A stretch of DNA of 64,000 bases from an uncultured Acidobacteriota bacterium (GTDB lineage Bacteria; Acidobacteriota; Polarisedimenticolia; JACPZX01), in NCBI GenBank assembly GCA_964400605.1, contig CAYNUH010000003.1:50370-114369 (forward strand), written 5' to 3'. The position numbers were made by a program, and so were the translations under genes. Positions 10,367 to 47,747 of the stretch are shown here, in pieces (within the stretch, counting starts at the first letter, position 1; each line of letters starts with the position of its first letter). The notes under the pieces were generated by a model that saw nothing but the letters and a program-made list of their open reading frames with translations, did no database searches and had not been told where the DNA came from.

Positions 10367-10390
10367 GGCTCTGCGGCGGGAGGGGTGTGG

Positions 10391-11830
10391 ATGGGCTCGC
10401 AGCGGGTCCTGATCGTGGACGACGAGGCGGGGATCCGCACGTCGCTGAGCCAGGTCCTCACCGACGACGGGTTCGAGGTCGAGGCGGTGGCCACGGGGGA
10501 GAAGGCGCTGGAGCGTCTTCGGGAATCCCACTTCCACCTCGTGCTCCTCGACGTCTGGCTGCCGAAGCGCGACGGGCTCGAGGTCCTCCAGGAGATCCGG
10601 TCCAACCACCCCGACGCGGCGGTGGTGATGATCTCGGGCCACGCCAACGTGGAGACCGCGGTGAAGGCCACCAAGCTTGGGGCCTTCGACTTCGTCGAGA
10701 AGCCGCTGAGCCTCGAGAAGATCACCCTGGTCGTTCGCAACGCCCTCAAGCACCGGCGGCTGGAAGAGCGAAACCGCGCGCTGCGGGAGACTCTGAGGCG
10801 CCGTCCCATCCTCATCGGTGAAAGCGACGTCATGGTCCGGCTCAAGGAACAGATCCAGGCGGCCGCCCCCACCGACGGGCGCGTTCTGATCTTCGGCGAG
10901 AACGGCACCGGCAAGGAGGTGGTGGCACGCACCATCCATGCCCTCTCCATGCGCGCCGATGAGCCTTTCGTGGAGGTGAACTGCGCGGCCATCCCGGAGG
11001 AGCTTATCGAGAGCGAGCTGTTCGGCCACATGAAAGGCGCCTTCACGGGCGCGGCCGAGAACAAGAAGGGGAAGTTCGAGCTGGCCGACGGAGGCACGCT
11101 CTTCCTGGACGAGATCGGCGACATGAGCCTGAAGACCCAGGCCAAGGTGCTGCGGGTGCTGCAGGAGCAGACGTTCGAGCCCGTGGGAGGCTCCACCGGC
11201 GTGAAGGTGGACGTCCGCGTCATCGCCGCCACCAACAAGGACCTCACCGAGCAGATCAGGAAGGGCGCCTTCCGCGAGGATCTCTACTTCAGGCTCAACG
11301 TACTGCCCATCCGGGTGCCGCCGCTGCGAGAGCGCCCCACCGACATCCAACTTCTGGCCGGCCATTTCCTGGCGGAGTTCGCCCGCCACTACGGGCGCGC
11401 GATCCCGGCCGTCGATCCCCAAGTGGTGGATGCCATCAAGGGCTACGCCTGGCCGGGCAACGTCCGGGAACTGCGGAACATGGTGGAGCGGATGACCATC
11501 ATGGGGCCGCGTGGTCGGATCACGGTTGCCGACCTTCCTCCCGAGCTGGGCGGCGGCTCGGCGGCGGCGGCCGGCGAAGCGGCCTTCGATCTCGGGGAAG
11601 CGGGCGCGCTCCGGGAGGCGCGAGAGAGGTTCGAGCGCTGGTACATCGCCCGGAAGCTGAGAGAGCACGGCAACAACGTCACGCGCACCGCCGAGGCGCT
11701 GGGCCTGGAGCGGAGCCATCTGCACCGCAAGCTCAAGGCGCTCGGATTGGGCGCCGACCGCTCGGGCGCCGCGCGGGACGTGGAGCCGGATCCGGCCGCG
11801 GCGCGCATGGGGCCCGGGGAGCCCTTCTAG
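10391..11830 (+). CDS. ntrX: Sigma-54-dependent response regulator (REC + AAA+ sigma54-activator + Fis-type HTH)
   Basis: REC domain with 'LIVDDE', Walker A 'GENGTGKE', the 'ESELFGH' and GAFTGA motifs, and a C-terminal HTH_8. Confidence 0.9.
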   Translation: MGSQRVLIVDDEAGIRTSLSQVLTDDGFEVEAVATGEKALERLRESHFHLVLLDVWLPKRDGLEVLQEIRSNHPDAAVVMISGHANVETAVKATKLGAFDFVEKPLSLEKITLVVRNALKHRRLEERNRALRETLRRRPILIGESDVMVRLKEQIQAAAPTDGRVLIFGENGTGKEVVARTIHALSMRADEPFVEVNCAAIPEELIESELFGHMKGAFTGAAENKKGKFELADGGTLFLDEIGDMSLKTQAKVLRVLQEQTFEPVGGSTGVKVDVRVIAATNKDLTEQIRKGAFREDLYFRLNVLPIRVPPLRERPTDIQLLAGHFLAEFARHYGRAIPAVDPQVVDAIKGYAWPGNVRELRNMVERMTIMGPRGRITVADLPPELGGGSAAAAGEAAFDLGEAGALREARERFERWYIARKLREHGNNVTRTAEALGLERSHLHRKLKALGLGADRSGAARDVEPDPAAARMGPGEPF

Positions 11831-11832
11831 GC

Positions 11833-12783
11833 ATGCGGGCCGACCTGCACGTCCACTCGATCCATTCCGGGGCCCTCCACTACCGGCGGGCGGGGCTGCG
11901 GGACTGCTACGCCGCTCCGGGGGAGGTCTACGACGCCGCGAAGGCGGCCGGGATGGACCTCGTCACGATCACCGACCGCGATACCATCGTCGGGTGCCTT
12001 CGGCTGATCGAGGAGCGGAGGGATCCGGAGGATTTTCTCACTGGGGAGGAGGTGGAGGCGTCCCTTCCCGACTCCGCGCTCAAGGTGCACATCAACGTCT
12101 GGGGGATCACGCAGCGCCAGCACGCGGAGATCGCCCGGCTCAGGAGCGATCTGCTGGACCTGTGCGCATGGCTCCGGGCGGAGCGGGTCGCCTTCTGCTT
12201 CAACCATTTCGTCGGGGCCCTCCCGGTGAACGTCCCTTCCGTCGAGATCTACCGAAACGTCCTGGCTCTCTTCGACGCCATCGAGGTCCGGAACGGAGCG
12301 CAGGGACGCCACTACAACGCGCTGGTGGCCGCGCTGGCCTCCGGGGAAGCGGCGCGCCGGAGACCCGTGGCCTTCGTAGGAGGCAGCGACGCCCACACGC
12401 TGCGGCGCGTCGGCTCGACGTGGACCGAGGCGTCCGCCTCCTCCCGCGAGGGGTTCCTGGAGGAGGTGCGGGGCGGGCGCACTGCGGCCGGAGGGCGCGT
12501 CAGGACCTCCGCCGACATCGTGATGGACCTCGCCTCGCTCACCCTCTCGCACTACGCCGCCCTTGGGGATTCGTTCCGCGGCCACGGCGACGGGTCGCGC
12601 CCGCCGGGCCGGGAGCTCCTGCGCGCCGCCGCGGCGCTTCCCGTGCAGGCGATCGGGGCCCCGCTGGTCGGGACGGTGCTCTACCTCCTGGGCGTCCGCG
12701 CGCAGGTGCGCGCCCTCCAGCGCGAGATCGGGAGCCTCGACCTGCGCGAGTTCCGCGAGCGGATGAACGCTTTTCGCGCGTAG
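11833..12783 (+). CDS. PHP-domain (polymerase/histidinol-phosphatase-like) metal-dependent phosphoesterase
   Basis: The 'DLHVHSIHS' N-terminal motif and downstream His/Asp ligands ('HINVWG', 'GGSDAHT'). Starts 3 nt after the ntrX stop. Confidence 0.8.
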   Translation: MRADLHVHSIHSGALHYRRAGLRDCYAAPGEVYDAAKAAGMDLVTITDRDTIVGCLRLIEERRDPEDFLTGEEVEASLPDSALKVHINVWGITQRQHAEIARLRSDLLDLCAWLRAERVAFCFNHFVGALPVNVPSVEIYRNVLALFDAIEVRNGAQGRHYNALVAALASGEAARRRPVAFVGGSDAHTLRRVGSTWTEASASSREGFLEEVRGGRTAAGGRVRTSADIVMDLASLTLSHYAALGDSFRGHGDGSRPPGRELLRAAAALPVQAIGAPLVGTVLYLLGVRAQVRALQREIGSLDLREFRERMNAFRA

Positions 12784-12851
12784 CCGCCGGCGGCGGGCCG
12801 GATCCGCTTGTCGGGGCTGTCTTGCCCTCCCGCGGCCGCCTCCGGAGGCGC

Positions 12852-15800
12852 TTGAATGCCGACATTCCCAACCTATATTCACGCTCCGTGCTGCCCAAAA
12901 ACCTCCGTTCGCTCTGGGTGGACAGCTCCCCCGATAAGGCCGTCGCCCGCGCGCGCCGCTTCGTCGAGAAAGGGCGCTACGACAGCGCCGCCGCGGCGCT
13001 CAAGGACGCCCTGGAAGCCCGAGGCGAGGATTCCGATATGCGTCTCGAGCTGTCGCAAATCCTCGTCTCGGCCGGACGGACGAGGGAAGCCGCGGATGGG
13101 CTGCGCACGTTTCTGAAAGCGAAGCCCGGCGAGTTCCCCCGCGTCCGCGACTTCGTCGAGTGGGCGCGTGCCCATCACAGCGAGGTGCAGCCGCTGCATG
13201 AGGTCCTGGGGGAGCACCACGTTTCGCGCAAAGAGTGGAGCGCCGCGCTGGAGGAGCTGGAACGCGTGGACAAGCAGGCCCTGCAGGCCCTCCTGGAGGC
13301 GCGCCTCGCCAACCTCAACCGCTTCCTCGAGAAGGGCCCCGGCGCCGTCCCCAAGTCCGCCGTGCCGCTGCTTTACTTCGCGGCGCTCATTTACGAGGCC
13401 CTCCAGGACTACCCGAAGGCGGCGGAGACCTACCGCCGGATCGTCTCCTCGTCCGCTTCGGAGGTGAAGGCCGTGGAGGAGCGGTTCAAGGCGATCGTCG
13501 CCCGGAACCATCGCTCGACCGCGCTGAGGGCCGCGCTGGCCGAGATTTACCTGGGAGCCGGGGAGGAGGCCCGGGCGCTGGATGAGTACGTCCTGATGGC
13601 CGAGATTGACCCGCGAGCGGCCCCGCAGGCGGCGGCCGCTCTCGAAGGGATTGCGGCCTCGGCCGCCGATCCATCGGAGGCCTTGTGGGCGCTCGCCCGT
13701 GTGCGCGGCAAGGAGGGGAAGGTCGAGGACCTTCTCCGCGTCGCGGGGAGGCTCATCGCCATGAGCCGGCGGCTGGACGAGGTGCGCGGGTTGCTCGAGG
13801 GCGCCATCGCGGACGGAAAGCAGGACCCGAGGCTGCAGCTCCTGATCGGGGAGGCGGCCCTCGGCGCCGGGAAGGTTTCCCACGCCACGTCGGCCTTCGC
13901 CGCCGCCGCGATGCACCCGGCGCCCGAGATCCGTTCGCGCGCGCGCGAGGCCCTGGAGCGCACGGCGGCGGCCCACCCCACCGACGCGAAGGCGAGCGAG
14001 GCCCTGGCCGATCATCATCTCAGGGAAGGCAGGTTCGACGACTGCGTCGCCGCTCTCGAGGGCCTCTGCGGGATCGAGGCCGGTGCCGCGCCGATGGTGG
14101 TCTCGCGCCTCCAGACGCTCCTCCTGTCGCGACCGGGCCATCCGAGCGCCGAGACGCTTCTGGAGCGTCTCGCCCCGGTGTCCGGCAACACGCGGCTGGC
14201 CGCGGCGTTTTTCAGACGGCGTCTGCGCGGCGCCGCCGACGAGGCGCGCGCGTCGCTCGAGGCGCTGACGCCGATGCTGGAGAAGGATCCCCAGGATTCC
14301 GAGGTGCGGCTCGCCGCCGCCGAGGCGCGCGCCGCGTGCGGCGACATCGAGGGTGCCTGGGCGTTCGCGCGCCCCCTCGTCGATGCGACGATGGGCCCCG
14401 ATCCCACGCTCCTGCACCTGATGGTCCTCATCGGCGGATCGTCGCCCGAACGGTGCCACGAAGTCTCGGAGGTCTTCCGGAACATGGCCCCCGCTCTGGC
14501 CGCCGCTCCCGAGGGGGTCTTCGCCCTCGGCGAGATGGCGGCCCGGAACGGCGACACGACGGAGGCGCTCTCGGCCTTTCGGGCGGCCGCGGCGTTCTCG
14601 CCGGCGGCCGCGGCCGAGGTCATCGACGCCGTCCGGGGGCTCGGCGGCGGCGGCCTCTTCGGCGAGGCCGCGGTTTCCCTGGGGGAGGCGCTCCTCGACG
14701 CCGGAGACTTCGCCGGGGCCGCGTCGGTCCTTTCCACCGCCACCCAGCTTCCCCCCTCCGCGATGCGCCTGATGAGCAAGCTCGAGGAGGCGCTGCGCTC
14801 GCGTCCCGAGAACTTGGATCTCCGCGTGGCCCTCGCCTCGGCGCTGGTCGCGGGCGGCAGGGCCTCGCGCGGACGCGAGGTGATCGAGGAGGGCATCCGT
14901 CGCGGGGGAGATTCTGCGCAGGCGCCGCTGCACCTCGCGGCCGGGGACGCCTGGCTGCGGGAGGGGAATCTCGGCGAGGCCGTGCGCGCCTACTCGCGCG
15001 CCATGGCGCGGGACAAGTCCCTCGCTTCCGACGCGGCGCACCGCATCGAGAAGGTCCTGGACACCGACGTCGGCCACGCGGGCGCCCATCTGGCCCTCGG
15101 GCGGGCGCGCCTCCTCGAGGGGCGTCCCCGCGAAGGAGTGAACTCGCTTCTCACCTCCTGGTCGATCCGTCCCGCGCTGGGCGCGTCGATCCTGAAGGAC
15201 CTCGCCTACGCCGCGCACGCCTTCCCGCTGGAGCCGCAGGTGGATCTCTCCCGCGCGCAGATCCTGCTGGGGCAGGGTGAGGTCGAAAAGGCGACCGAGG
15301 CGCTCGGCGCCGCGCTACGCACCGCGCCGTCCATCGCGGTCGAGGTGCTCGTGCGCCTCCAGTCCATCACGCGCAGCCACCCGTCTTGCGCCCGCGCCCA
15401 TCTCCATGCGGCCCGGGCGTGGCACCAGAGGGGACGCTGCGCCGAATCGAGCGCGTCGTACGCCGCCGCCGTGGAGCACGACCCCAATCTGGCCGAGATG
15501 GTGGCGGCCGGGCTGGCCGATCTCATGCGGACCTTCCCCGAGAGCACCGATCCCTTCCTGGTGCGCGCGCGGATCTATGAATCCCAGGGCAACCCCGGCC
15601 CGGCCGCCGAGTCGTACCACGCCGCGGCCGCACGGGGGTGCCCGCCCGGCGAGATCCTCCCCGCGCTGCGCGCTCTCGCGCTCCGCCCGGGGCCGCACCG
15701 CGGGCGAGCCCTGATCGCGCTCGGGTGCGTGGCGCGGGACGGCGCAGAGCCGAGCGAAGCGGCGCGCGCCTTCGAGATGGCCGCTCTCGACTCGCCGGAC

Positions 15801-19187: not shown

Positions 19188-19750
19188 ATGATCGCGGCCG
19201 GCGCGCGTGTGGACGGGCTCGGCGCCGACCCCGAGGACTTCTCCGCCGACTGGAATGGCGCATGGGAGGGGAGCGCGCGGCGGACACCCGACGGCTGGAC
19301 CGCCGAGATCCGCATCCCCACCCGGATCCTGCGCTTCAGCCCGCATCGGAGTCCTGGGGGTTCAACGCGGAGCGCCGCGTTCTGCGCGACCGCACCACCC
19401 TGCGCTGGTCCGGTATCAGCCTGGACTCCCTGTTCTATGACGTCCGCCGCGCGGGCAGGCTTCGCGGCGTTCCGCAGCGGCGCGACGGCATCTCCTCCGC
19501 TTCTGGGGACGCGGGCGGGGAGGTCTACCAGCTCCGGTTCGGCCACTCCTACACACCCGATCTCAGCCTGGCGACCTTCATGCAGTTCGACTCGGAGTCG
19601 CGCGCTCTCGGCCTCAACGCCCGCCTGCGCTGGACGCTATCCCCGGGCGCCGACCTCTTCGTCGTCTGGAGCCGCGACGGTGACGCCCGCAGAGGCGGCC
19701 GGAGGCCTCCGGGCGGCGAGGGCCATGGGCAGGCATTCAGCCGGAAGTAA
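19188..19750 (+). pseudogene. Frameshifted remnant of a CBM9-like/DUF5916-family hydrolase
   Basis: The first frame gives the CBM9-like motif 'FSADWNGAWEGSARRTPDGWTAEIRIPTRILRF'. After a +1 shift near 19330-19345 a second frame gives 'GFNAERRVLRDRTTLRWSGISLDSLFYDVRRAG...LRWTLSPGADLFVVWSRDG'. Total length is only about 190 aa, versus about 800 aa for intact family members. Confidence 0.45.
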
Positions 19751-19770
19751 AGAATTTCAGTAAGTTTCAT

Positions 19771-19798
19771 TTGACGGGGCCGGATCTCACCGTAAATT
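19771..19798 (+). promoter_or_regulatory. Putative promoter TTGACG-N16-TAAATT in an AT-rich island
   Basis: 19741-19830 is strikingly AT-rich for this genome and lies about 100 nt upstream of the small ORF at 19896. Confidence 0.35.
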
Positions 19799-19895
19799 GA
19801 CGAGTGAACTGAATTCCGTCCAACGGGTTCCCTGGCCCCGGAACGAGCCGGGCGGCGGCCGGTCGCCGCCCTGCGACCACGAAAAGAGGCAGCGC

Positions 19896-20123
19896 ATGGC
19901 AGGGAAGGCCCCCGCTCCGAAGAAGACCGCGGAACGCTCCAAAGTCCGGAACGTCGAGGCCGTTCCGGACAGCGCGGCGGCCGGGAAGCCCCGCGAGATA
20001 TCTGGGGCTGCCGGCTACCCCGAGACCGCCGGCTCGCTCCTGGCGGAGAGCCTGATGGCGTCGCCCCTCGCGGGCGCCTCTCCGGACGGCGCACCGCCCG
20101 GCGAACCCCCCTACGACATCTGA
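19896..20123 (+). CDS. Small hypothetical protein (75 aa, Lys-rich N-terminus)
   Basis: ATG with AAGAGG 8 nt upstream. Sequence 'MAGKAPAPKKTAERSKVRNVEAVPD...'. No recognisable domain. Confidence 0.3.
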   Translation: MAGKAPAPKKTAERSKVRNVEAVPDSAAAGKPREISGAAGYPETAGSLLAESLMASPLAGASPDGAPPGEPPYDI

Positions 20124-21031
20124 GCAGGCGCCTCCGCGGGCTCGGCGGCCGTGTCGGGCTCCGGGTGGATCACGATGTCGGCGATCTGCGGGAAGCGGCG
20201 GCGCAGGTTCTCCTCGATCCGGTCGCAGAGCTCATGCGCCTCCTTCAGCGAGAGGTGCGGATCGAGAAGCACCGTAAGATCCAGGAAGACGGCGTCCTCG
20301 AACCCCCGGCTCCTGACGTTGCGGCACGACAGCGCCCCCGGGAAGGCGAGGGCGGCGGACTCGATCTCCGCCGTGTCGATGACGCGCCTGTCGGCGATCA
20401 CGTCGAGCCCCGAGGTCAGGATCCTGTAGCCCGCCACCACGATCACGCCGGCGATGGCCACGGCCGCGAGGGGATCGGCCCACCACAATCCGCCCCGTAT
20501 CATCACGATTGCGGCCAGCACTCCGGAGGAGGCGAACACGTCCGAGAGCGTGTGGCGGGAGTCGGCGATGAGGAACAGGGAGTGCAGCTCCCGGCCCCAG
20601 CGGGACTCGTACCGGGTGACGAAAACGTTCACCGCCAGCGTCCCCAGGACCGTGGCCACCGAAGCCCAGGAAGGATCCGGCAGGCTCCGCCCCCGCAGCC
20701 GCTCCATCGACGTGAGGAGAATCTCGAAGGCCGTCGCGAACAGAAGCATCGAGATCCCCATCGAGGCGAGGACCTCGAACTTCCGGTGGCCGTACTGGTG
20801 GTCCTCGTCGGGGGGCTTCGATGCCACCCGGAGGGCGATGAGGCCGACGATGTTCCCCGAGCCGTCCAGCAGCGAGTGGTAGCCGTCGGCCACGAGGCTC
20901 AGCGTGGCGGTCAGGGCTCCGACGAGGAGCTTCGCGCCGGCCACCACGAGGTTGAGGGCCAACGTCACCCAGAGGACCTTCCGGATCTGCCGGCCCCTTC
21001 GCGACGTTCCGGCGGCCAGGACGCTGTCCAC
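20111..21031 (-). CDS. Cation diffusion facilitator (CDF) family metal efflux transporter
   Basis: Six TM helices with metal-binding residues ('HSLLD' in TM2, 'HTLSD' in TM5) and a cytoplasmic C-terminal domain. Confidence 0.9.
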   Translation of the reverse strand: MDSVLAAGTSRRGRQIRKVLWVTLALNLVVAGAKLLVGALTATLSLVADGYHSLLDGSGNIVGLIALRVASKPPDEDHQYGHRKFEVLASMGISMLLFATAFEILLTSMERLRGRSLPDPSWASVATVLGTLAVNVFVTRYESRWGRELHSLFLIADSRHTLSDVFASSGVLAAIVMIRGGLWWADPLAAVAIAGVIVVAGYRILTSGLDVIADRRVIDTAEIESAALAFPGALSCRNVRSRGFEDAVFLDLTVLLDPHLSLKEAHELCDRIEENLRRRFPQIADIVIHPEPDTAAEPAEAPAQMS

Positions 21032-21034
21032 GCT

Positions 21035-22483
21035 TCATCCTCCGGCGAGGAACTCTTCCTCGGCCCGGGCGGCGGCGTCGATGAGTCGTCCGGGATCCCG
21101 CGCCATCTCGGCATCCCAGGAGCGCGCGAGGCGGCCGGCAGGGCAGCCGTCTTCATCGGCCAGCGATCGATCGAGGGGATCGAGGAGCCGCGTCTCGTCC
21201 GCGCCCGCCGGTACGAAGGCGGCGCCCGCCCGGGTCCCGGAAGACGCTCCCGCCGCCTCCTCCGGCGCGCCGCAGGATGCGAGACGAGTCAGCCCCTCAC
21301 GGGCGATCCGGCTGAGCTCGCGCGCCAAGTCGAGCGCCGTCTCGCCGCCCAGCCGCGCCTGTGGCCCTCGGGCGCACACATCGCCGTGGAAGGCGACCCG
21401 CCGTTCGTAAGGGATGTCCGCCACCAGAGCCCAGGCCCGGCTGCGTGCCGCACCGTCGTAAAGGATCCCTTTCCAAAGCGCGGCGAGCGCGAGGGCCAGC
21501 GCGGGGGAGACGCTGTCGGCTCCCCGGACCTCGATGTAGGTCTTGAGCCGCACCTCCGTGAAAATCGTGGTCAGGTGCAACGCCCAATCGGCGCGCGTGG
21601 CCTTCAGGCCGCCGTATCCATCCTCCAGGAACGCGCGGAAGGGTCTGCCGTCGAGCGCGACCCAGCGGTCCGGCCGCCGGATGAAGATCACGGGGACGCC
21701 CAGAGCGTACTCCGCGTAACGGCGGAACGAGAGGTCCTCCCGGAAGGCGAACGCCGGCAAGCCGCACCGCGCCGGGTCGGTATCGAGCCAGATGTGAGCG
21801 CGCCGCGTCGCGAAGCCGTTGAGGGCGGCGCCGTAGAGCGGGGAGTGGGCGAAGGCGGCCGTCACGACGGAGGCGATCCCCATGGCGGTCCTGATCTTCT
21901 CGGCGGCGTCCTCTTCGCCGCCGTAGTCGAGATTGATCTGGCAGCCGGCCGTTGCCTTCATCATGTGATGGGCGAGGGCCCCGCGCGCGGCGAGGAACGG
22001 CGCCATGATGGCGTAGCGCGCCTTGGGGACCCACTCGATCTCCTCGACGCGGGAGACGGGCTGCAGCCCGAGGGGCACCCAAGCCACGCCCAGGGGGGCG
22101 GAGGCGAAGGCCGTCTCGCGAAGGTGCGCGGCGAGCTCCTCCCGCAGGGATCGCAGGTGGTAATGGACGGCGGCGCTCAGCTCGATCTGGCCGCCGGGCT
22201 CCAGAGAGATCCGGCTCCCACCCCGGCTCAGCCCGATGACCCGCCCGGCCTCCTCTTCGCGCTCCCAGCCGAAGCGTGCCGACATCGCTCGCAGCACGGA
22301 TTCGACTCCCGGGCCGCCCGAGTAAGGGATGGCGCGTCCGGATGGCGCCAGCAGCCCGAGCCTCTCGTATTCCAGCCCGAGTCCCCACTCGTGGGGCGGC
22401 TTCCCGCCCGCGCGGAAGCTCTCGAGGATCTCCTCCTCGCCGTGGAGGGGTCCGTCGCCGGGCAGGGAGAGGGGGCCGGTCAC
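21035..22483 (-). CDS. gshA: Plant-type (group 3, GCS2 family) glutamate-cysteine ligase
   Basis: Motifs shared with Arabidopsis GSH1: 'ISLEPGGQIELS', 'CQINLDY', 'AHIWLDTD', 'HLTTIFTEVRLKTYIEVRGAD'. GTG start with GAAGGAAA RBS; the prior (spoVR) stop overlaps the RBS. Confidence 0.85.
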   Translation of the reverse strand: MTGPLSLPGDGPLHGEEEILESFRAGGKPPHEWGLGLEYERLGLLAPSGRAIPYSGGPGVESVLRAMSARFGWEREEEAGRVIGLSRGGSRISLEPGGQIELSAAVHYHLRSLREELAAHLRETAFASAPLGVAWVPLGLQPVSRVEEIEWVPKARYAIMAPFLAARGALAHHMMKATAGCQINLDYGGEEDAAEKIRTAMGIASVVTAAFAHSPLYGAALNGFATRRAHIWLDTDPARCGLPAFAFREDLSFRRYAEYALGVPVIFIRRPDRWVALDGRPFRAFLEDGYGGLKATRADWALHLTTIFTEVRLKTYIEVRGADSVSPALALALAALWKGILYDGAARSRAWALVADIPYERRVAFHGDVCARGPQARLGGETALDLARELSRIAREGLTRLASCGAPEEAAGASSGTRAGAAFVPAGADETRLLDPLDRSLADEDGCPAGRLARSWDAEMARDPGRLIDAAARAEEEFLAGG

Positions 22484-22493
22484 AGGGTTTCCT

Positions 22494-24005
22494 TCAGCGC
22501 GCCGCGGCGTCGGCGGCGGAGAGATCGGCGCTGTCCGACTCGGTGAGGTCCTTCCCATCGAAGGAGAGGATCTTCCCCTTGCCGTCCACCGCGGTCATCA
22601 AGTGCACTGGCCGCTGCCAGATCCGGTGCACGTTTTTGAGAGTCTCCCGGGCCCAGTCGATCTTGAGGTCGATTCCCTCGTGCCGGTGCAGTAGAAAGAG
22701 CTCGCCGCGGTTGCGGTGGTTGGCGTCGGTGACGTAGATGAACGGCTGGCCGTGGTTCGTGAGCTGGAAGAGGATCTGGGCCTTGATGGCCCTGAACTCC
22801 CGGCTCGCGATCTGATACTGGTTGGTCTTCTTGTTGTAGGCGTACGTGAAGAGCCGGTGCCGGGCGGCGAACTCCTCGGTGAGGAACGCGTCGATGAAGG
22901 TGACGTCGTTGTGGATGCGGCGCACCTCGAAGAGCTTCTCACGTCCGAGGCCCGAGGAGAGATCCCACTCCCGCTTGGCCCGCAGGTCCTCGCACTCGTC
23001 GTACTCCTTGCCGAACTTCCCCCTGTTCCACCGATCTTCGATGTCTTTGTAGAGCTCGAGCCCGAGCTTGTAGGGGTTGAGCCGGCCGGGGTGCCCCGCG
23101 ACGGTCCCGGAGTGGTGGTCGGCGTAGTCGATGACCTCCGAGTCGGTGAGGGCCTTCTCGGTCATGATCTTCGAGTGCCAGTACGTGGCCCATCCTTCGT
23201 TCATGATCTTGGTCTGCCCCTGCGGCGCGAAGTAGTACGCCTCCTCTCGGATGATGCCCAGAACTTCGCTCTGCCACGGCTCCAGCGGCGCGTTGTCCAG
23301 CAGGAACTTCAGCGCGTCGCGGACGGGCTCCTCGGGGTGCCGTCGCGCCTTCTGCCGCTCCTCCAGGATCTGCTTCTGCTGCTCTTCGAGGAAGCCGGGC
23401 GGGTTGATGAAGTTGCTCATGTAATCCTTGCTGCGGAGGCGCCGGGGCGAGGCTTCCTCTGCATCGTCCTCCCCCGGCGGCTCACGATGCCGCTCGCGCA
23501 CGATGAACGGCGAGTGCGGGTCGATGAGACTCTCCAGCGAAAGGCAGATGTCGATGAAATCCTCCACCGTCTCAACGGTGTGCTTTTCCATGAGCCGGCG
23601 GATGCGCGTGGCATGGTTCGCCATCACGTCCATCATCTTCCGGTTCGTCTTGGAGAACCACACGTTGTTCTTGAAAAAATCGGCGTGGCCGTACACGTGC
23701 GCCATGACGATCTTCTGATCGACGTCGGCGTTGGCCTCGAGCAGGTACGCGTAGCAGGGATTGTTGTTGATGACCATCTCGTAGATCTTGTGCAGCCCGC
23801 GCGCGTACGACTTGCTGAGGTGCTCGTACTCCATGCCGAAGCGCCAGTGCGGGTAACGGGTGGGATAGCCTCCCAAGGCCGCCACTTCGTTCATATGGTC
23901 GTAGCCGAGCACCTCGAAGATCACCTCGAAGAAGTCCAGCTCGTAGTCGAGGGCGTAGCGCCGGATCTCCTGCCTCAGGCTCTCCAGGTGGCGCGGCAGG
24001 TTCAT
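22494..24005 (-). CDS. spoVR: SpoVR/YcgB-family protein
   Basis: Full-length similarity to SpoVR/YcgB ('[18 protein letters not shown]', '[14 protein letters not shown]', '[14 protein letters not shown]'). The ATG overlaps the yeaH stop (ATGA). The track ORF is over-extended to 24308. Confidence 0.9.
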
Positions 24006-25108
24006 CGGCCTCTCCCCAGGAATTCCTTGATGGAGCCGTAGATGGCTTCCTTGTTCTCGATCTGGCTCAGCGCCACCCGGGGCTCCGCGTCGAAGGCGTC
24101 CCTGAGGTCCTGCAGGAACTGCCCCGTGCCGTAAGGGCTCTCCACCTGGCCGTAGCAGAACAGATTCGCCATGGGAAGCAGGGACTCCCGGAGCTGTCGT
24201 ATGCACTCCTCGGTGTCGCCCTGCGACCAGTTGTCGCCGTCCGAGAAGTGGAACAGGTACACGTTCCATTCCTCGGGAGGGAACTCCTCGCGGACGATCT
24301 GCTCGCACAGCCTGTAGGCCGACGAGATGACCGTGCCTCCGGACTCGCGGGTGTGGTAGAAGGTTTCCTGGTCCACGACGCGCGCCTCCGCGTCATGGAT
24401 GACATAGCGCACCTCCAGGCCCCGGTACTGGCTGCGCAGCCACGTGTCGATCCAGAACGACTCGAGCCGGACGATCTCCTTCTGCTCATCGCCCATGGAT
24501 CCCGACACGTCCATCATATAGACGATGACCGCGGTCGTCTCCGGCTCGCGGTGCACCCGCCACGTGCGGTACCGGCGGTCCCGCCGGATGGGGACGATGC
24601 GCGGGCTGAGCGGGTCGTAGGAGCCCGAGGCGATCTGCCGCTTGAGGGCTTCCTTGTAGGTGCGTTTGCGGTGGCGCAGGCTCTCGGGGCCCGTGTTGGC
24701 GACGCCGGTGTAGCGGTCCTTCTCGGAGAGGATCTCTTTGCGGCCCTTGTGCCGTATGTCGGGCAGCTCCAGCTCCTCGCCCAGAATCTTCGCCAGCTCC
24801 TCCAGCGAGATGTCCACCTCGAGGATGTGCTCGCCCGGCGCGTCCCCCGCCCGCCCGGATCCGTCCTCGGGTTCCCCGAAACCGATGGGCTGGCCGAGGT
24901 CGCCGTCCCCCTGACCCACCCCGCCGCTCTGGCGCGGGCCGTACACGAAGCGGGGAAGCTCGATCTGGGGGATCGGGATGCTGATGAGGTCCTTCCCGCG
25001 GCGTCCGATCAGCTCGCCGTGGGTGATGTACTTCTTGAGGTTCTTCTTGATCCGGCCGCGCACGATCTGCTTGAACCGGTTCAGATCCTGATCGATCTTC
25101 AGGGCCAT
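24002..25108 (-). CDS. yeaH: YeaH/DUF444-family protein (vWA-like)
   Basis: '[12 protein letters not shown]...' and a C-terminal vWA-like region; the conserved partner of PrkA. Confidence 0.9.
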
Positions 25109-25249
25109 CGCCTTGACCTCGAAGCTTCAGGCCGGACGGCGCCGCGTCGGCGCATCTCGAACGCGGCCCGAGGGTTAGACGAAAGTATAATGCCGTGCCG
25201 TGGACCCGGCAAAGAAGACCGGCTCAGCGGGGGGTCAGGGGGAGGCGCG

Positions 25250-25945
25250 ATGCCGAGAAGAGACGGCCAGACGATGGGGCTGCTCGCAGAGATGGCGGCT
25301 CGGGCCCGCCTGGGGCGGGACAGGGGCCTGTCGCCCCTGGCTGCCGCTCCCCTGTTCGGGCCGGTGCTGAAGGCCGCCTCCGAGATGGCGGGCATCCTGC
25401 CGGACGACAACGTCGTCATCCTGGGGGCGTCGGACCTCAGGCCGGCGCCGTGGATTGCGCCGGCGTGCCGCCGGCTCATGATCGTGGACGACCTCCCGGA
25501 GCAGACGCTCACCCGCCTGGAGGAGGATCAGCGCTCGCGCGGGCTCGACAACGTGCGCTTTCAGTGGGGGAGGGCGCGGGTGATCCCGACGCCTCAGTAC
25601 ACGACCGACAGGATACTATCCATCAACTACCTCTTCCGGTCCCGCGACCCCGCCGTGGTGATCCGGCAGATGCACTGGACGTGCCGCCACGGATCCACGG
25701 TCGTGTGCTGCGAGCCTTCGGCCAGCCTCAACGCGCGCACGGCGCGCAAGTACTCCCGGGAAGCCGAGTTGCCCATGGAGGATCACCGCGCGCTGGTTTC
25801 CTACGCGCGGGCGGCGGCGGCGTACCGAGGGTTCACGAGCGAGGGGCTGGGGGCGCTGCTGGCGGGGGCCGGGATCCAGGACATCGAGGTCCGAGAACTC
25901 CTTCACGGCCTCGTGCTGGCGGCGCGCGGCTCGGTGCGGCTCTGA
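25250..25945 (+). CDS. Putative class I SAM-dependent methyltransferase-like protein, opposite strand, inserted between prkA and yeaH
   Basis: ATG with GGGGGAGG RBS and a perfect TATAAT about 60 nt upstream. Motifs 'VVILGASDL' (motif I-like), 'DNVRFQWGRARVIP' (motif II-like) and 'DRILSINYLF' (motif III-like). Only this C-terminal 232 aa of track ORF 24248..25945 is believed. Confidence 0.5.
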   Translation: MPRRDGQTMGLLAEMAARARLGRDRGLSPLAAAPLFGPVLKAASEMAGILPDDNVVILGASDLRPAPWIAPACRRLMIVDDLPEQTLTRLEEDQRSRGLDNVRFQWGRARVIPTPQYTTDRILSINYLFRSRDPAVVIRQMHWTCRHGSTVVCCEPSASLNARTARKYSREAELPMEDHRALVSYARAAAAYRGFTSEGLGALLAGAGIQDIEVRELLHGLVLAARGSVRL

Positions 25946-25975
25946 ACGAGATCCTTCGTCTGGGCGGGAGGGCCG

Positions 25976-28045
<2,070 letters not shown>

Positions 28046-28126
28046 GAGCGATTGCCTCCCGTAGGTCCCTCGTCGGTGTGGAGCGGCGTGAGTTCGTCAC
28101 GCCGCGCCGGCGAGCGAACGCCGATA

Positions 28127-28155
28127 AATCTAGGTCAGTATCCGGAGGTTGTCAA
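28127..28155 (-). promoter_or_regulatory. Near-consensus sigma70 promoter TTGACA-N17-TAGATT upstream of prkA; 5'-UTR hairpin GGCGTGAcgaacTCACGCC
   Basis: Read on the minus strand. The -35 contains the anti-sigma gene stop codon. A perfect 7-bp stem / 5-nt loop lies about 25 nt downstream of the -10, and GGGAGG sits 9 nt before the prkA ATG. Confidence 0.5.
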
Positions 28156-28784
28156 AAAAGCCGACGAAGCCGACGGCCTACCCGCCGCGCCGGTCCCGCG
28201 AGCGCGACGCCTCCGACAAGCACAACCCCCGAGAGGAGAAGGGTGGCCAGTAGCGCGCCGAGGAGGAAGGCCGCGATCGCGACGTGGGGCGCCACCGGCC
28301 CCGCCCCTCCCGGAACAGAGCCGGCGGTCCCGAGCAGCCCCTCCACGAGGCTGGAGGGGGAGGGGACGAGGCGCGAGAGCAGCCCGACGAGACGCTCGGA
28401 GACCATATCGAGATCCGTCAGCTCGCCCAGGCCCTCCACCAGCCGCAGTCCTCGCTCCCAACCCGGACCGGACGGCGACCACCCGAAGGCGATCACCGCC
28501 ACGAGCACGCCGAGCGAGCCCCACTTGAGGGAGCCGCGGTCGGCGGCACGCCGCCTCAGGCGCCGCAGCGTGGAGAGCACGTCGCCGGCGAAGTCGCGAG
28601 GAGGAACCGGCGTCTCGAGATCTCTGAGGGCGCGGAGGACCTCGCGCCCGGCGTCCGCCGTCTCGGCGCAGCCGGAGCACGCCGAGAGGTGCTTCCCGGT
28701 TTCGAAAGCTTCCACGCAATCCACCTCCTGCTCGAGGTAGAAGGGGAGAACGCTGCGGGCCCGCGCGCAGGGTGCCGTGCTCAC
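28152..28784 (-). CDS. Membrane-anchored zinc-finger (ZAS, zf-HC2) anti-sigma factor
   Basis: The GTG start overlaps the sigma gene stop (GTGA). 'CVEAFETGKHLSACSGC' gives C-x9-H-x3-C-x2-C, which matches the ZAS HxxxCxxC signature. A single TM helix ('WGSLGVLVAVIAFGW') and a C-terminal TM/extracytoplasmic segment follow. Confidence 0.75.
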   Translation of the reverse strand: MSTAPCARARSVLPFYLEQEVDCVEAFETGKHLSACSGCAETADAGREVLRALRDLETPVPPRDFAGDVLSTLRRLRRRAADRGSLKWGSLGVLVAVIAFGWSPSGPGWERGLRLVEGLGELTDLDMVSERLVGLLSRLVPSPSSLVEGLLGTAGSVPGGAGPVAPHVAIAAFLLGALLATLLLSGVVLVGGVALAGPARRVGRRLRRLF

Positions 28785-29389
28785 TCGATCGCCCTCCGCA
28801 GCATCTCGCGAGCGCGAAAGACCCGGTTCTTGACCGTGCCGAGCGGCAGCTTCGTCACGAGAGCGATCTCGTCGTACCGGAGGCCCGCCTGGAAGCGAAG
28901 AAGGATGACTCGCCGGTAGGAGGGGGGCAGGTCGGCCAGTGCGGCTTCGATCCTCTCGCGCGTTTCCCGCGCTGTGAGCATGTCGTCGGGGCCCGGATCC
29001 GTGGAAGCGATGAGCGCCGAGCCGTCCTCGTCGCCCACGCCGAGATCGTGCAGCGATCGATCTTTTTTCTTCCGGCGCTTGCGATCCACGGCGGCGTTGG
29101 CGGCGATCCGGTAGAGCCACGTCTTGAAGCGGAAGGCGGGATTGAACTGCTCGAGGCAGGAGAAGACTTTGATGAAGACTTCCTGCGTGAGGTCGGCCGC
29201 CTCGTCCGGATCGCGCGTCATCCTCAGCAGGAAGGCGTACACGCCGTGCTGGTGACGGCGGACGAGCGACTCGAAATCCCCGCCGCGTCCCGCGAGGATG
29301 TCCGCGACGAGCGATTCGTCAGATTTCGGGTCACCCGACGGCGTCGGCAGGATGGCAGGTCGTGACTCTGCCGCCCGCGTGGCTCCCAT
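28781..29389 (-). CDS. ECF (group IV) RNA polymerase sigma-70 factor
   Basis: Sigma70_r2 ('YAFLLRMTRDPDEAADLTQEVFIKV') and Sigma70_r4 ('LPPSYRRVILLRFQAGLRYDEIALVTKLPLGTVKNRV') regions. Confidence 0.85.
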   Translation of the reverse strand: MGATRAAESRPAILPTPSGDPKSDESLVADILAGRGGDFESLVRRHQHGVYAFLLRMTRDPDEAADLTQEVFIKVFSCLEQFNPAFRFKTWLYRIAANAAVDRKRRKKKDRSLHDLGVGDEDGSALIASTDPGPDDMLTARETRERIEAALADLPPSYRRVILLRFQAGLRYDEIALVTKLPLGTVKNRVFRAREMLRRAIE

Positions 29390-29448
29390 CGAACCCCCTG
29401 CGTGCCCCAACCCGAGCCGGCCTACCGGGTTAGAAGCAGCGGCTCTTG

Positions 29449-29476
29449 ATACGCGATGGACCGGGGAGTTGTTTCA
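29449..29476 (-). promoter_or_regulatory. ECF-type (sigmaW-like) promoter TGAAAC-N17-CGTATC upstream of the ECF sigma gene
   Basis: Minus-strand 'TGAAACaactccccggtccatcgCGTATC' lies about 55 nt upstream of the sigma ATG and resembles the TGAAAC-N16-CGTA ECF consensus; this suggests autoregulation. Confidence 0.4.
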
Positions 29477-29830
29477 GTTTTTTCACTCTGTCCGCGCGGC
29501 TTTTCCGGGCGCGTCAGGGCCTTGACGGAGGCGCCTCGCGCCTGAATCAACCACCCGCCGACTGAAGCCTCGCAAGCCACGTCGTGGACGGCGCTTATGA
29601 CACGCGGTCCCCGCCGGGCGTTCATGGCTCCCGGCTTGCATAGTCGGAGGCGGGAGGAAAGACCATGGCAGAATCGGTTCGCCGTTTCCACTGGATAGTG
29701 ACTTCCTTCGCCGACTACACCCGACGCCTGCTCGCGACCGCCCCTCACGCCCGCTTCTTCTGACCGTCGGCGCTGTCGGCGCTGTCGGCCGGAGGGGCTC
29801 GACGGCGGGGGTGAGCTCGCCCCAAATCCC

Positions 29831-29882
29831 TTGACCATCAAGAGGTTCTGAGCGTATCATCCCTCGTTCAGGGAGGGATGAT
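29831..29882 (+). promoter_or_regulatory. TTGACC-N18-TATCAT promoter plus perfect 10-bp inverted repeat ATCATCCCTC-n7-GAGGGATGAT covering the SD and ATG of the GGDEF-PilZ gene
   Basis: Read directly: 5' arm 29856-29865, 3' arm 29873-29882 (GGAGGGATGATC contains the SD and start codon). The 5' arm overlaps the -10 hexamer. Confidence 0.45.
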
Positions 29883-31074
29883 CCTGGGCAGGGCCACCGA
29901 CAAGTCCTCCGGAAAGCTGCTCGCCGTCCTCGCGAAATCCACCGGGCAGGGGGCCGTCGAGATCCTCGACTCCCTTTCCCGGGCCACCTCCCAGGCGGCC
30001 GCCTCCAGCCTGCTGCAGCTGCTCACCCACATGACCTTCCCGGAGCCAGAGGCGAGGGAAATTGTCCTCGCGGCCTTCCAGCACCGGGACTTCCTGCGCG
30101 AGAAGCTCGGCCGCGACGTGGGCGTGCGGGTGGCCCTCTTCGATCTGATGGTTGGCGTCGAGCGCAAGCTCCCGAACCCGAAGATCATCGACCTGCCGAC
30201 TTTCGAGCGCATCGAGCGCTCGGCGACCACCGACCACCTCACGAACCTCTACAACCGTTCGCACTTCGAGGAGAGGCTGCACCGCGAGATGAGGCGCGCC
30301 GAGAGGTTCGACCAGCATCTGGCGCTGGTCATCCTCGACATCGACGACTTCAAGGCCGTCAACGACGGGCGGGGCCACCTGGTGGGCGACGCGGTCCTGC
30401 GCGAGGTCGGGCGCCTGATCGTCGAAAGCGTCCGCGATATCGACATCGCCGCGCGGTACGGCGGAGAGGAGTTCACCGTCATCCTGCCCGAGACGCGCCG
30501 GAACGGCGCGTTCATCGTCGCGGAGCGCATCCGCAGCGAGATGGAGAGCCACTTCCGGAGGCGGGGGGCGCTGGGACGCGCGCTGAAAGCCACGCTGAGC
30601 GGCGGGCTCGCCTGCTTCCCCGAGGACGCCGAGGGGCCCGAGGGCCTCATCGCACGCGCCGACGAGGCTCTCTACCGCGCCAAGAAGTCGGGCAAGAACC
30701 TCATCGCGGTCTACTTCGAGGAGAAGCGGCGGGACGAACGCATCACCATCGAGGAGAGGAAGCTGAAGGCGATCCTGCTCGAAGGGGGACGCGGCGGCGC
30801 GGTGCGCCACAGCGGGCTGCTGAAGAACGTAAGCGAGGGCGGGCTTCTCCTCGAGTTGAGCAGGCCCGTGCCCGTGGGCCGCGAGATGCAGGTGTCGTTT
30901 TCTCTAGGGGTCCAGCCGGCCTACAGGTTTCCGTGCACCGTCGTCCGCCTCGACGAGCACGGCTCCAACGGGGGGCGCCGCCGGTTCGAGGCCGGGCTCC
31001 GCTTCCAGAGGAGGGCCCGGATCCTCCAACCCCAGCTCACCCGCCTGGCCCGACGGCAGGCGGCCGTGGGCTAG
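29878..31074 (+). CDS. Diguanylate cyclase (GGDEF) with N-terminal uncharacterised domain and C-terminal PilZ domain
   Basis: 'RYGGEEF' active site and 'RxxD' I-site ('RRNGAFIVAERIRSEME' region). C-terminal PilZ motifs 'RGGAVRHSG' and 'NVSEGG'. Confidence 0.88.
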   Translation: MILGRATDKSSGKLLAVLAKSTGQGAVEILDSLSRATSQAAASSLLQLLTHMTFPEPEAREIVLAAFQHRDFLREKLGRDVGVRVALFDLMVGVERKLPNPKIIDLPTFERIERSATTDHLTNLYNRSHFEERLHREMRRAERFDQHLALVILDIDDFKAVNDGRGHLVGDAVLREVGRLIVESVRDIDIAARYGGEEFTVILPETRRNGAFIVAERIRSEMESHFRRRGALGRALKATLSGGLACFPEDAEGPEGLIARADEALYRAKKSGKNLIAVYFEEKRRDERITIEERKLKAILLEGGRGGAVRHSGLLKNVSEGGLLLELSRPVPVGREMQVSFSLGVQPAYRFPCTVVRLDEHGSNGGRRRFEAGLRFQRRARILQPQLTRLARRQAAVG

Positions 31075-46663: not shown

Positions 46664-47747
46664 CTACCTCGCCGAGCGGATCGAAGCCGGCGACATCCCC
46701 TCCGCCTCATGGCTCATCGGCGACGCCGAGCGGGTGATCGCTTCGGGCGCGCTGGGACACGCCGTCCTCGTCCCCGGGCGCGTGCCGGCCGCCGAGGACA
46801 CGATCTACGACCTGGCGTCGCTGACCAAACCCCTTGTGACGTCGCTCCTGGTGATCCTCCTCGCCCGCGAAGCGGGCTTCCGGCTGGGCGACCGGGCGGG
46901 GCGGTTCCTCCCCGAGTTCGACCGCCTCGACAAGCGCGACATCACGCTGGCCCACCTCCTCACGCACACGTCGGGCCTGCCGGATTGGGCGCCGCTGTAC
47001 GTGAAGGGCGGCACCATCGCGGAGTACTTGCGCCAGATCCAGGGCATGCAGCCGCTCGAGCCGCCCGGCGTGAAGCTCCGCTACTCCGATCCCGGCTACA
47101 TCGCGCTGGGCGCCGTGGCCGAGCGGGCGGGCACGGCGGGATTGGGCGCGCTGGCGGCGTCGTTGATCCTCGAGCCCGTGGGCTCCCGTGCCTGCTTCCG
47201 GCCCCCTCCGGCCCTCCAAGGAAGGGTGGCCGCCACCGAGGAGGCGTGCCAGTATGAGCGCGTGAAGGCCGGAGCGGCCGCAACGGGGTATCGCGGCTGG
47301 CGGGAGGGTGTCATCCGCGGCGAGGTGCACGACCAGAACGCCTGGGCCGCGGGCGGCGTGGCGGGCCACGCGGGGTTGTTCGGCACGGCGAAGGACGTCT
47401 ACCTCATCGCCCGCAAGGCGCTCGACACCCCGTCGCGGTTGGTCGCCGAAGAGGATCTCCCGCTGCTCAGGGAGGCGCGGACGGGCGATCTCCCGGAGCC
47501 GCGATCGATGGCCTACCGGATCAACCGCGCGGAGGACGGCGGAAGCGACCCCACGACCGCAGCCGGCGCCGCGTTGCCCCCTCGAGCGTTCGGCCACAAC
47601 GGCTTCACGGGGACATCGGTGTGGATTGACCCGGCTGCATCCCGCGTCTACGTCCTCCTGACCAACCGCGTCCATCCCGAGGTGCGCGAGGAGATGGACA
47701 TGAACGCGCTCAGACGGGAGTTCCACCGCCTGGCCGCGACCGTGTGA
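46647..47747 (+). CDS. Serine hydrolase, beta-lactamase/PBP-like (class C/AmpC-like fold)
   Basis: SxxK motif 'SLTKP', a YxN-like region, and 'HNGFTGTSVWIDP' (KTG-like). Confidence 0.8.
   Translation: MRAPADYLAERIEAGDIPSASWLIGDAERVIASGALGHAVLVPGRVPAAEDTIYDLASLTKPLVTSLLVILLAREAGFRLGDRAGRFLPEFDRLDKRDITLAHLLTHTSGLPDWAPLYVKGGTIAEYLRQIQGMQPLEPPGVKLRYSDPGYIALGAVAERAGTAGLGALAASLILEPVGSRACFRPPPALQGRVAATEEACQYERVKAGAAATGYRGWREGVIRGEVHDQNAWAAGGVAGHAGLFGTAKDVYLIARKALDTPSRLVAEEDLPLLREARTGDLPEPRSMAYRINRAEDGGSDPTTAAGAALPPRAFGHNGFTGTSVWIDPAASRVYVLLTNRVHPEVREEMDMNALRREFHRLAATV

Follow-up and report, generated by a model that had tools for sequence, protein, structure and literature searches.

Likely separately promoted neighbours of prkA in a syntenic block of Candidatus Polarisedimenticolia

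Introduction

What ties an extracytoplasmic function (ECF) sigma factor, the prkA-yeaH-spoVR triad, a gamma-glutamylcysteine ligase (GCL) and a metal exporter to one another when they lie side by side in the same DNA? The question is raised by a 64,000-nt stretch, here called the window, from an uncultured Acidobacteriota bacterium of the class Candidatus Polarisedimenticolia (G+C content about 69%), in which eight genes at 20111-29410 bring these families together, all on the minus strand except one gene for a methyltransferase-fold protein. An initial annotation had taken the sigma/anti-sigma pair to be of a redox-sensing type and to head the whole cluster, and had suggested that the PrkA system is part of a thiol/metal stress regulon. 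The comparison reported here confirms the observation and supports the interpretation in part, the proposed regulatory wiring being the portion that finds no support. The account that we favour, with modest confidence, is that the region consists of adjacent, separately promoted units within a syntenic block of the class.

Few bacterial modules of unassigned molecular function are as widely conserved as PrkA/YeaH/SpoVR, and any stable genomic partner of this module is therefore a lead. The triad forms a conserved operon whose genes show strong cofitness and whose biochemistry is not known (10.1101/072470; PMC3188799), and it has been placed under RpoS, sigma54/NtrC and ppGpp (Escherichia coli, Rhizobium etli) or under sporulation sigmaE (Bacillus) (PMC3188799). 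For Bacillus anthracis, a 2026 study reports that PrkA is an AAA+ ATPase, that its kinase and protease activities in vitro are negligible and that it plays a part in osmotic stress (PMC13001217). Full-text searches of the literature found no description of a link between PrkA/SpoVR and an ECF sigma factor or a glutamate-cysteine ligase; one haloarchaeal co-mention was set aside as coincidental.

Materials and Methods

Gene identities were assigned from Pfam and NCBIfam cut-offs and from searches against solved structures, with PADLOC used for defence genes and AlphaFold2 and Foldseek for the orphan protein described below. A scan of species-representative genomes for PrkA gave the best 80 loci, from at least ten phyla, which were compared by tblastn with the window proteins; the queries for the flanking genes, and these alone, were picked by a crude gene finder based on G+C content at third codon positions, which missed several real genes. 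The class set comprises 14 distinct loci, namely the six closest from the PrkA scan together with contigs retrieved through PrkA, GCS2 and the orphan protein, and counts of the ECF pair cover 13 of them. The comparison set from other phyla comprises 74 PrkA loci, of which the promoter scan covered 72. One class locus, L088, was used for gene presence only, its yeaH and spoVR being fragmentary (273 and 175 aa; 10373-13405) and the C-terminus of its anti-sigma out of frame, a disruption that likely reflects assembly errors or pseudogenisation. Gene identities, motif positions and motif conservation were read from these comparisons, and transcript boundaries and co-expression were predicted from them.

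The nearest named relatives of the window PrkA come from metagenome-assembled genomes of Acidobacteriota, class Candidatus Polarisedimenticolia, and an identical PrkA is encoded on a contig of JGI metagenome 3300010391.

Results

Gene content and synteny

The eight genes, in the order in which the minus strand is read, are the following.

28781-29389, minus strand: group IV (ECF) sigma factor, probably starting at ATG 29389; the longest open reading frame (ORF) begins at TTG 29410
28152-28784, minus strand: anti-sigma factor with a zinc-finger anti-sigma (ZAS) motif and two membrane segments, 210 aa
25976-28045, minus strand: prkA, 689 aa; AAA_PrkA 6e-91, PrkA C-terminal domain 9e-90
25250-25945, plus strand: orphan gene with a predicted class I methyltransferase fold, 231 aa; antisense, convergent with prkA
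24002-25108, minus strand: yeaH/yhbH (DUF444), 368 aa; DUF444 2.3e-86, NF003711 621.8 bits against a cut-off of 388
22494-24005, minus strand: spoVR/ycgB, 503 aa; SpoVR 2e-135 with SpoVR_C
21035-22483, minus strand: GCS2-family ligase nearest to the plant-type GCL, 482 aa; Pfam GCS2 1.2e-46
20111-21031, minus strand: divalent-cation exporter of the cation diffusion facilitator (CDF) family, 306 aa; Cation_efflux 4.5e-42 with ZT_dimer

Family models and direct reading of the sequence agree with the initial annotation on gene content, order, strand, junction overlaps and motifs. The SpoVR, YeaH/DUF444 and PrkA scores all lie far over the Pfam cut-offs, and PrkA proteins from at least ten phyla share 70-91% identity with that of the window. 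The sigma and anti-sigma genes share a GTGA overlap in which the anti-sigma GTG lies on the sigma stop, yeaH and spoVR overlap by ATGA, the spoVR TGA sits inside AAGGA with the GCL GTG starting 10 nt on, and the GCL/CDF junction reads GGAGGA-TGA-agc-GTG, which places the CDF start 3 nt past the GCL stop.

Among the 80 PrkA loci, prkA, yeaH and spoVR stand on one strand in this order almost everywhere, the window included. A co-oriented ECF gene upstream combined with a GCS2 gene downstream occurs only in the six closest of these loci, all from Polarisedimenticolia or Acidobacteriota; in the 74 loci from other phyla or lineages, the acidobacterial L067 among them, neither a co-oriented ECF gene nor any GCS2 gene lies within 10 kb. 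Within the class, the ECF/anti-sigma pair precedes prkA in 10 of the 13 loci covered; the other three, L086, L089 and L091, lack it and have a PilZ gene abutting prkA. The ligase gene lies downstream of spoVR on the same strand in all 14 class loci, at only 45-65% identity, and class synteny breaks immediately downstream of it; it is the only class-wide addition to the universal prkA-yeaH-spoVR triad. L093, an independent NCBI assembly from another metagenome, has an eight-gene layout identical to that of the window. Because it recurs across the class loci, and in L093 without any difference in layout, the arrangement is real and heritable and not a one-off of a single strain, and the expected linkage of the triad to the ligase holds throughout the class but stops at its border.

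The 10 kb upstream of the ECF pair are equally collinear in the same class loci; the genes there encode GGDEF-PilZ, TsaB-like, acetyltransferase, Psd, PssA, Asd-like and MacB/ABC proteins. The GGDEF-PilZ (diguanylate cyclase) gene, at 29878-31074 on the plus strand of the window and divergent from the ECF operon, is found at the same position in nearly all class loci and is absent in L007. In the loci that lack the ECF pair, it is duplicated or joined by a PilZ-only gene.

Promoters and hairpins

Five candidate regulatory elements are discussed below.

29450-29476, minus strand: ECF-type promoter TGAAAC-N17-CGTA, predicted to be autoregulatory; the sole match in 64 kb, with 0.02 expected by chance
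28160-28174, minus strand: terminator-like hairpin followed by TTTTTT, within the last anti-sigma codons and abutting the prkA -35; putative function
28127-28155, minus strand: sigma70-type prkA promoter TTGACA-N17-TAGATT, 10 of 12 consensus positions
28083-28105, minus strand: hairpin in the 80-nt prkA 5' untranslated region (5'-UTR), 9-bp GC-rich stem, z-score -2.08 (modest)
25184-25212, minus strand: candidate yeaH promoter TTGCCG-N17-TATACT, 9 of 12 positions; putative function

The coding strand of every ECF-bearing locus (10 of 10) has a single copy of the relaxed pattern [G/A/C]AAAC-N16/17-CGT[A/T], before the ECF gene and 1430-1547 nt upstream of prkA. None was found in the loci without the ECF pair, and none before prkA, yeaH, GCL or CDF in the class loci scanned. 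The window element matches the promoter type of Bacillus subtilis sigmaW, whose consensus has TGAAAC at -35 and CGTA at -10 (PMC5758882). The window holds one other relaxed match, AAAAC-N16-CGTA at 48138-48162 on the plus strand, which lies inside a 366-aa ORF (47744-48844) and is probably due to chance.

A different element lies directly upstream of prkA. TTGACA-N17-TA(T/G/C)ATT is found there in all 14 class loci, including the three without an ECF pair, and outside the class such a promoter precedes prkA in 14 of 72 loci, mostly from Chloroflexota. The sigma54-type pattern TGGCA-N6-8-TGC, as in R. etli, was run on the loci from other phyla only and was found before prkA in one of 72. We conclude from this conservation that prkA would have its own, class-wide promoter of housekeeping type, and that the one recognisable target of the ECF factor would be its own operon. 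Because the ECF-type promoter lies solely before the ECF gene, any ECF control of prkA would come only through read-through, and the notions that the ECF pair heads the cluster and that it drives the PrkA system as part of a thiol/metal stress regulon both lack the promoters that they call for at the supposed targets.

Promoter type upstream of prkA varies elsewhere. Ten Chloroflexota loci (L031, L035, L045, L053, L056, L058, L063, L068, L071 and L074) have TTGACG-N17-TATAAT with a TTG(n) extended -10, and the Myxococcota and Bdellovibrionota loci show no sigma70-type match upstream of prkA; for these reasons, the type seems to be lineage-specific.

The extended stem of the terminator-like hairpin has a predicted energy of -20.6 kcal/mol, and similar hairpins are present in L082 and L005. 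The hairpin in the prkA leader exists as first described, with its 9-bp stem, but is not conserved: the UTRs of the relatives range from 29 to 172 nt and have no common structure, and we rejected it as a conserved riboregulator. An Rfam scan of 19500-30500 at E values up to 1 returned one chance-level miRNA match only.

A plus-strand TATAAT (25186-25191) belonging to the methyltransferase-fold gene overlaps the candidate yeaH promoter. The core AGTATA(A/G)TGCC, in the intergenic region next to yeaH, is kept in the three orphan-gene loci that were aligned (the window, L092 and L093) and could serve as a -10 element on either strand, as TATACT for yeaH or as TATAAT/TATAGT for the orphan gene.

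The sigma and anti-sigma factors

The sigma factor has sigma regions 2 and 4 only (Sigma70_r2 9e-20, Sigma70_r4_2 3.6e-15) and scores 113.8 bits with the superfamily model TIGR02937 (cut-off 42.9). It passes no NCBIfam equivalog model, the SigW equivalogs PRK09641 and TIGR02948 giving 143.4 bits (cut-off 209) and 120.2 bits (cut-off 243.1). Among solved structures it is closest to SigW (94.2 bits) and AlgU (93.1), followed by RpoE (88), Mycobacterium tuberculosis SigE (87) and SigH (63.7); by these scores it is not nearest to SigR/SigH, as the cognate sigma of an RsrA/RshA-type pair would be. The overlapping gene for a cognate anti-sigma and a promoter with AAC at -35 and CGT at -10, through which transcription would be initiated, are further marks of an ECF factor.

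The anti-sigma carries C6...H31-x3-C35-x2-C38 (H31-LSA-C-SG-C38), and the HxxxCxxC motif is invariant in 10 of 10 orthologous anti-sigmas, in keeping with the weight first placed on it. A profile of the N-terminal domain built from nine orthologues matched RsiW best among solved structures (2.8e-9), then RsrA (8.3e-8), then DdvA and ChrR; the window protein alone, in a single-sequence search of solved structures, had no meaningful match and reached 15.5 bits with Pfam zf-HC2, below the cut-off of 22.2. Motif and profile point to a class I anti-sigma domain of the ZAS type. With 210 aa and hydrophobic segments at about 84-101 and 162-199, a layout shared by orthologues of 195-217 aa, the protein is not a soluble cytoplasmic anti-sigma of about 100 aa of the RsrA/RshA type.

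SigW-RsiW of B. subtilis is the best solved-structure match for both partners, and in both systems an HxxxCxxC anti-sigma domain is followed by a membrane anchor and the promoter, predicted to be autoregulatory in the window, is of the TGAAAC/CGTA type. SigW-RsiW responds to envelope and alkaline stress through regulated proteolysis. Where RsiW has one transmembrane (TM) segment and a folded extracytoplasmic domain, the window protein shows two hydrophobic segments and a loop of some 60 aa; B. subtilis sigmaW promoters have a 16-nt spacer, compared with 17 nt here and 16-17 nt among relatives; and the window sigma falls short of the SigW equivalog models, as noted above. With Streptomyces coelicolor SigR-RsrA and M. 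tuberculosis SigH-RshA the pair shares the HxxxCxxC motif and an N-terminal cysteine about 25 residues upstream of it, and the anti-sigma profile does match RsrA. Unlike these systems, in which RsrA is soluble and about 105 aa long, the window anti-sigma has two TM segments, and the sigma scores lower with SigH than with SigW, AlgU or RpoE. The promoter type differs as well, SigR-type promoters being of the form GGAAT-N18-GTT.

RsiW, ChrR and RsuA bear the same HxxxCxxC motif and are reported to be insensitive to thiol oxidants (PMC3177212), which is why the motif cannot by itself justify the label redox-type. Redox sensitivity has been tied to the sequence context of actinobacterial RsrA homologues (Jung et al., PMC3177212), and that context, KFEHHFEECSPCLEK (PMC3177212), reads ETGKHLSACSGCAET in the window anti-sigma. 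The redox-type assignment is right as to the ZAS motif, but the pair scores best against SigW/RsiW and the anti-sigma spans the membrane; the two proteins are at least as close to SigW/RsiW as to SigR/RsrA, and the label is unproven.

The orphan gene and the prkA-yeaH gap

The antisense methyltransferase-like gene that had been placed in the gap between prkA and yeaH is real, has its TATAAT and is predicted to have the fold in question; the gap measures 867 bp, not 870. A 294-aa ORF at 25195-26079 on the plus strand was rejected as this gene, as it has no Pfam match and is in the wrong frame. The protein has sub-threshold Pfam matches to methyltransferases (best 17 bits against cut-offs of 20-27), and no Pfam, NCBIfam or PADLOC model matches it above threshold. 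Its family has 18 members at 49-72% identity. The AlphaFold2 model has a predicted local distance difference test score (pLDDT) of 92.3, and its top Foldseek matches in the PDB are all S-adenosylmethionine (SAM)-dependent methyltransferases (probability 1.0, TM-score about 0.6, 12-18% identity), so the model indicates a Rossmann-like class I SAM methyltransferase fold. SAM-binding motif I reads LG(A/S)(A/S)D in the family, not GxGxG, and an invariant acidic residue, D81, closes beta-2. Given this degenerate glycine loop, the protein may lack methyltransferase activity.

The orphan gene is absent from L002-L007, where prkA and yeaH are 8-85 bp apart, and is confined to the sublineage in which PrkA shares at least 87% identity with the window protein; each of the five orphan-family contigs that could be matched also carries such a PrkA. 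With an 867-bp gap and an antisense gene inside it, prkA, yeaH and spoVR of the window are not one contiguous transcription unit. In the closest relative, L082/L083, an insert of 8.4 kb lies exactly between the prkA stop and the orphan-gene stop (L082 12067-20461; window 25942-25979). The L082 insert encodes a reverse transcriptase (PADLOC RT, 104 bits), an HTH_17 protein, an AAA_35-FGE-sulfatase protein, a TIR-AAA_35 protein and a candidate defence ATPase, PDC-S01 (AAA_14/DUF4143). Because of this further insert, the prkA-yeaH intergenic region is an insertion hotspot in the lineage of the window.

The ligase and the exporter

The best NCBIfam model for the ligase is the plant-type TIGR01436, at 332.1 bits below its equivalog cut-off of 463.15 (EgtA scores 149). 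The plant GCL structures 2GWC and 6GMO match residues 16-400 at E 6e-70, and the blocks EPGGQ.ELS, PK.RY.IM, Q.NLD, NSP and HLTTIF.EVRLK.Y.E.RGAD are kept. About 385 residues thus align with the GCL of Brassica juncea (GSH1, PDB 2GWC), active-site blocks included, whereas some 80 C-terminal residues of the window ligase remain unaligned. The plant-type assignment is borne out by the best model and the structures but not to the level of the equivalog cut-off, and we describe the enzyme as a plant-type-like GCL of predicted specificity. The nearest GCS2 homologues outside the class, at 44% identity in deltaproteobacterial assemblies, lie beside fts/ddl and not near prkA.

Translational coupling of GCL to spoVR, as first proposed, is found in the window, but most relatives have a gap of 80-250 nt upstream of GCL with a -10-like TGnTAGAAT or TTGAC-N17-GATAAT. 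The 10-nt spacing is specific to the window and a derived feature of it. A gene of the ParA/HTH type is called between spoVR and GCL in four loci (L086 6110-7897, L087 12711-14399, L089 12955-14631 and L091 7045-8871), and L004-L006, where spoVR and GCL stand about 1.9-2.1 kb apart, seem to have it too, which makes about half of the loci in all. The product has 560-608 aa, with HTH_25/HTH_19, a weak DnaJ signal and a ParA/CbiA ATPase domain, and its gene often overlaps the spoVR stop; the window lacks it. In these loci the ligase is followed by glutamate formiminotransferase (FTCD) and usually by prephenate dehydratase, in place of the CDF gene.

The exporter scores 216.6 bits with the CDF superfamily model TIGR01297 (cut-off 82), with the membrane and the cytoplasmic dimerisation domains both recognised; its nearest models are of Zn/Fe types (Cdf31, FieF, MamM), none of them above its own cut-off. 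Its proposed tie to the cluster is real in the window, where it follows the ligase so closely, but a CDF gene occurs in only 4 of the 14 class loci, adjoining GCL in the window, L002 and L093 and lying 1.3 kb off in L092. In L092 (8042-9681), also among the closest relatives, the CDF gene and the gene upstream of it, which encodes a 236-aa CxxCxxCC (PF03692) protein, overlap, and GCL is separated from the two by a 115-aa antisense ORF.

Discussion

We lean towards reading the region as a row of adjacent units, each with a promoter of its own. The ECF and anti-sigma genes would form an ordinary autoregulated sigma/membrane anti-sigma operon of the SigW/RsiW-RpoE type, transcribed from the GAAAC-N17-CGTA promoter. 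Next, prkA would be read from its own strongly conserved sigma70-type promoter, with or without the ECF pair in front of it, and in the window the ECF factor would reach it only by read-through past the terminator-like hairpin. The orphan gene would have been inserted antisense between prkA and yeaH in the sublineage of the window only, and yeaH-spoVR, together with the tightly packed GCL and CDF genes, would most likely be read from a new promoter in the inserted segment. In that sublineage yeaH-spoVR, joined in the window by GCL and CDF, most likely form a transcription unit apart from prkA. Because GCL and CDF are tightly packed behind yeaH-spoVR, YeaH/SpoVR, gamma-glutamylcysteine synthesis and metal export are probably co-expressed in the window organism.

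Several observations weigh against this division into units. The ECF pair has stayed co-oriented with prkA, at 106-230 nt from it, despite ECF divergence to 43% identity, which selection for co-expression could explain. Five ECF-bearing relatives lack the terminator-like hairpin, and read-through into prkA may be substantial in them; insulation of prkA from the ECF operon is plausible in the window and not general. Promoters and terminator alike are consensus matches whose backing is their conservation, and for the candidate yeaH promoter the match is to only 9 of 12 positions and the comparison covers no more than three loci.

The proposal of a single thiol/metal stress regulon, in which a disulfide-sensing ZAS protein frees the ECF factor to switch on prkA-yeaH-spoVR, glutathione-precursor synthesis and metal efflux, can call on the conserved HxxxCxxC with an upstream cysteine at RsrA-like spacing in the orthologues, on the RsrA match of the anti-sigma profile, on the co-oriented ECF pair near prkA in 10 loci, on the ligase downstream in every class locus and on the translational packing of GCL and CDF behind spoVR in the window. 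We nevertheless find it very unlikely. The ECF-type promoter is missing from exactly those genes that the factor would have to control, and the prkA promoter, the operon and GCL persist in the three loci that have no ECF pair. The sigma is nearer to SigW, AlgU and RpoE than to SigH, its promoter is of the GAAAC/CGTA and not of the SigR type, and the anti-sigma is membrane-anchored by two TM segments with its best match in RsiW, which is insensitive to thiol oxidants (PMC3177212). Moreover, in the window an antisense gene parts prkA from yeaH-GCL-CDF, and most class loci have no CDF gene at all. A purely inherited adjacency, in which nothing but an unrearranged segment keeps the ECF pair, the prkA operon, GCL and CDF together and no functional tie exists among them, is a viable and more serious competitor, though we judge it less likely than not. 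The 10 kb of unrelated housekeeping genes upstream are just as collinear in the same loci, which makes adjacency the background state of this segment, and since the linkage is also absent from all 74 outside loci, L067 included, each linkage counts as one clade-level event. The fts/ddl surroundings of the nearest outside GCL homologues, the ParA/HTH gene that separates spoVR from GCL in roughly half of the loci and the promoter-like element before GCL in most relatives fit the same picture. What this explanation does not readily accommodate is the ligase, which is kept in 14 of 14 loci and always on the spoVR strand at 45-65% identity, even though synteny breaks directly downstream, and whose distance from spoVR has been compacted to 10 nt in the window, which suggests selection for co-expression in this lineage at least. 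This retention is the one feature of the locus that hints at selection.

The separately promoted units preferred here leave room for a narrower functional tie. PrkA/YeaH/SpoVR could be wired to gamma-glutamylcysteine synthesis in the class, with the ligase as a co-regulated output or target boosted under stress by ECF read-through and the methyltransferase-fold protein as a lineage-specific accessory, a proposal that we regard as unlikely. The phenotypes of the triad relate to amino-acid use (10.1101/072470), and YeaG is reported to be linked to the control of methionine biosynthesis (10.1101/254623); retention of the ligase agrees loosely with both. Compared with yeaG-yeaH-ycgB of E. coli, R. 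etli and Bacillus, the triad here has the same three families in the same order with the yeaH/spoVR overlap, and differs in that a sigma70-type prkA promoter is conserved across the class, that an antisense orphan gene splits the triad in the sublineage of the window and that GCL extends it throughout the class. The cluster is a lineage-specific variant of known systems.

The main practical value of these results is negative. A redox regulon cannot be argued from a ZAS motif and adjacency, and what looks like a supercluster can be divided into separate units by the conserved promoters that lie between its genes. As for the triad, of the partners seen here only the gamma-glutamylcysteine ligase stands up to comparison, being present in all 14 loci of a single class. 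It is a weak lead, because it goes back to a single evolutionary event within a syntenic block and because most relatives have a separate promoter-like element before it. If it were true, however, the wiring of PrkA/YeaH/SpoVR to gamma-glutamylcysteine synthesis would provide a concrete biochemical handle on the triad.

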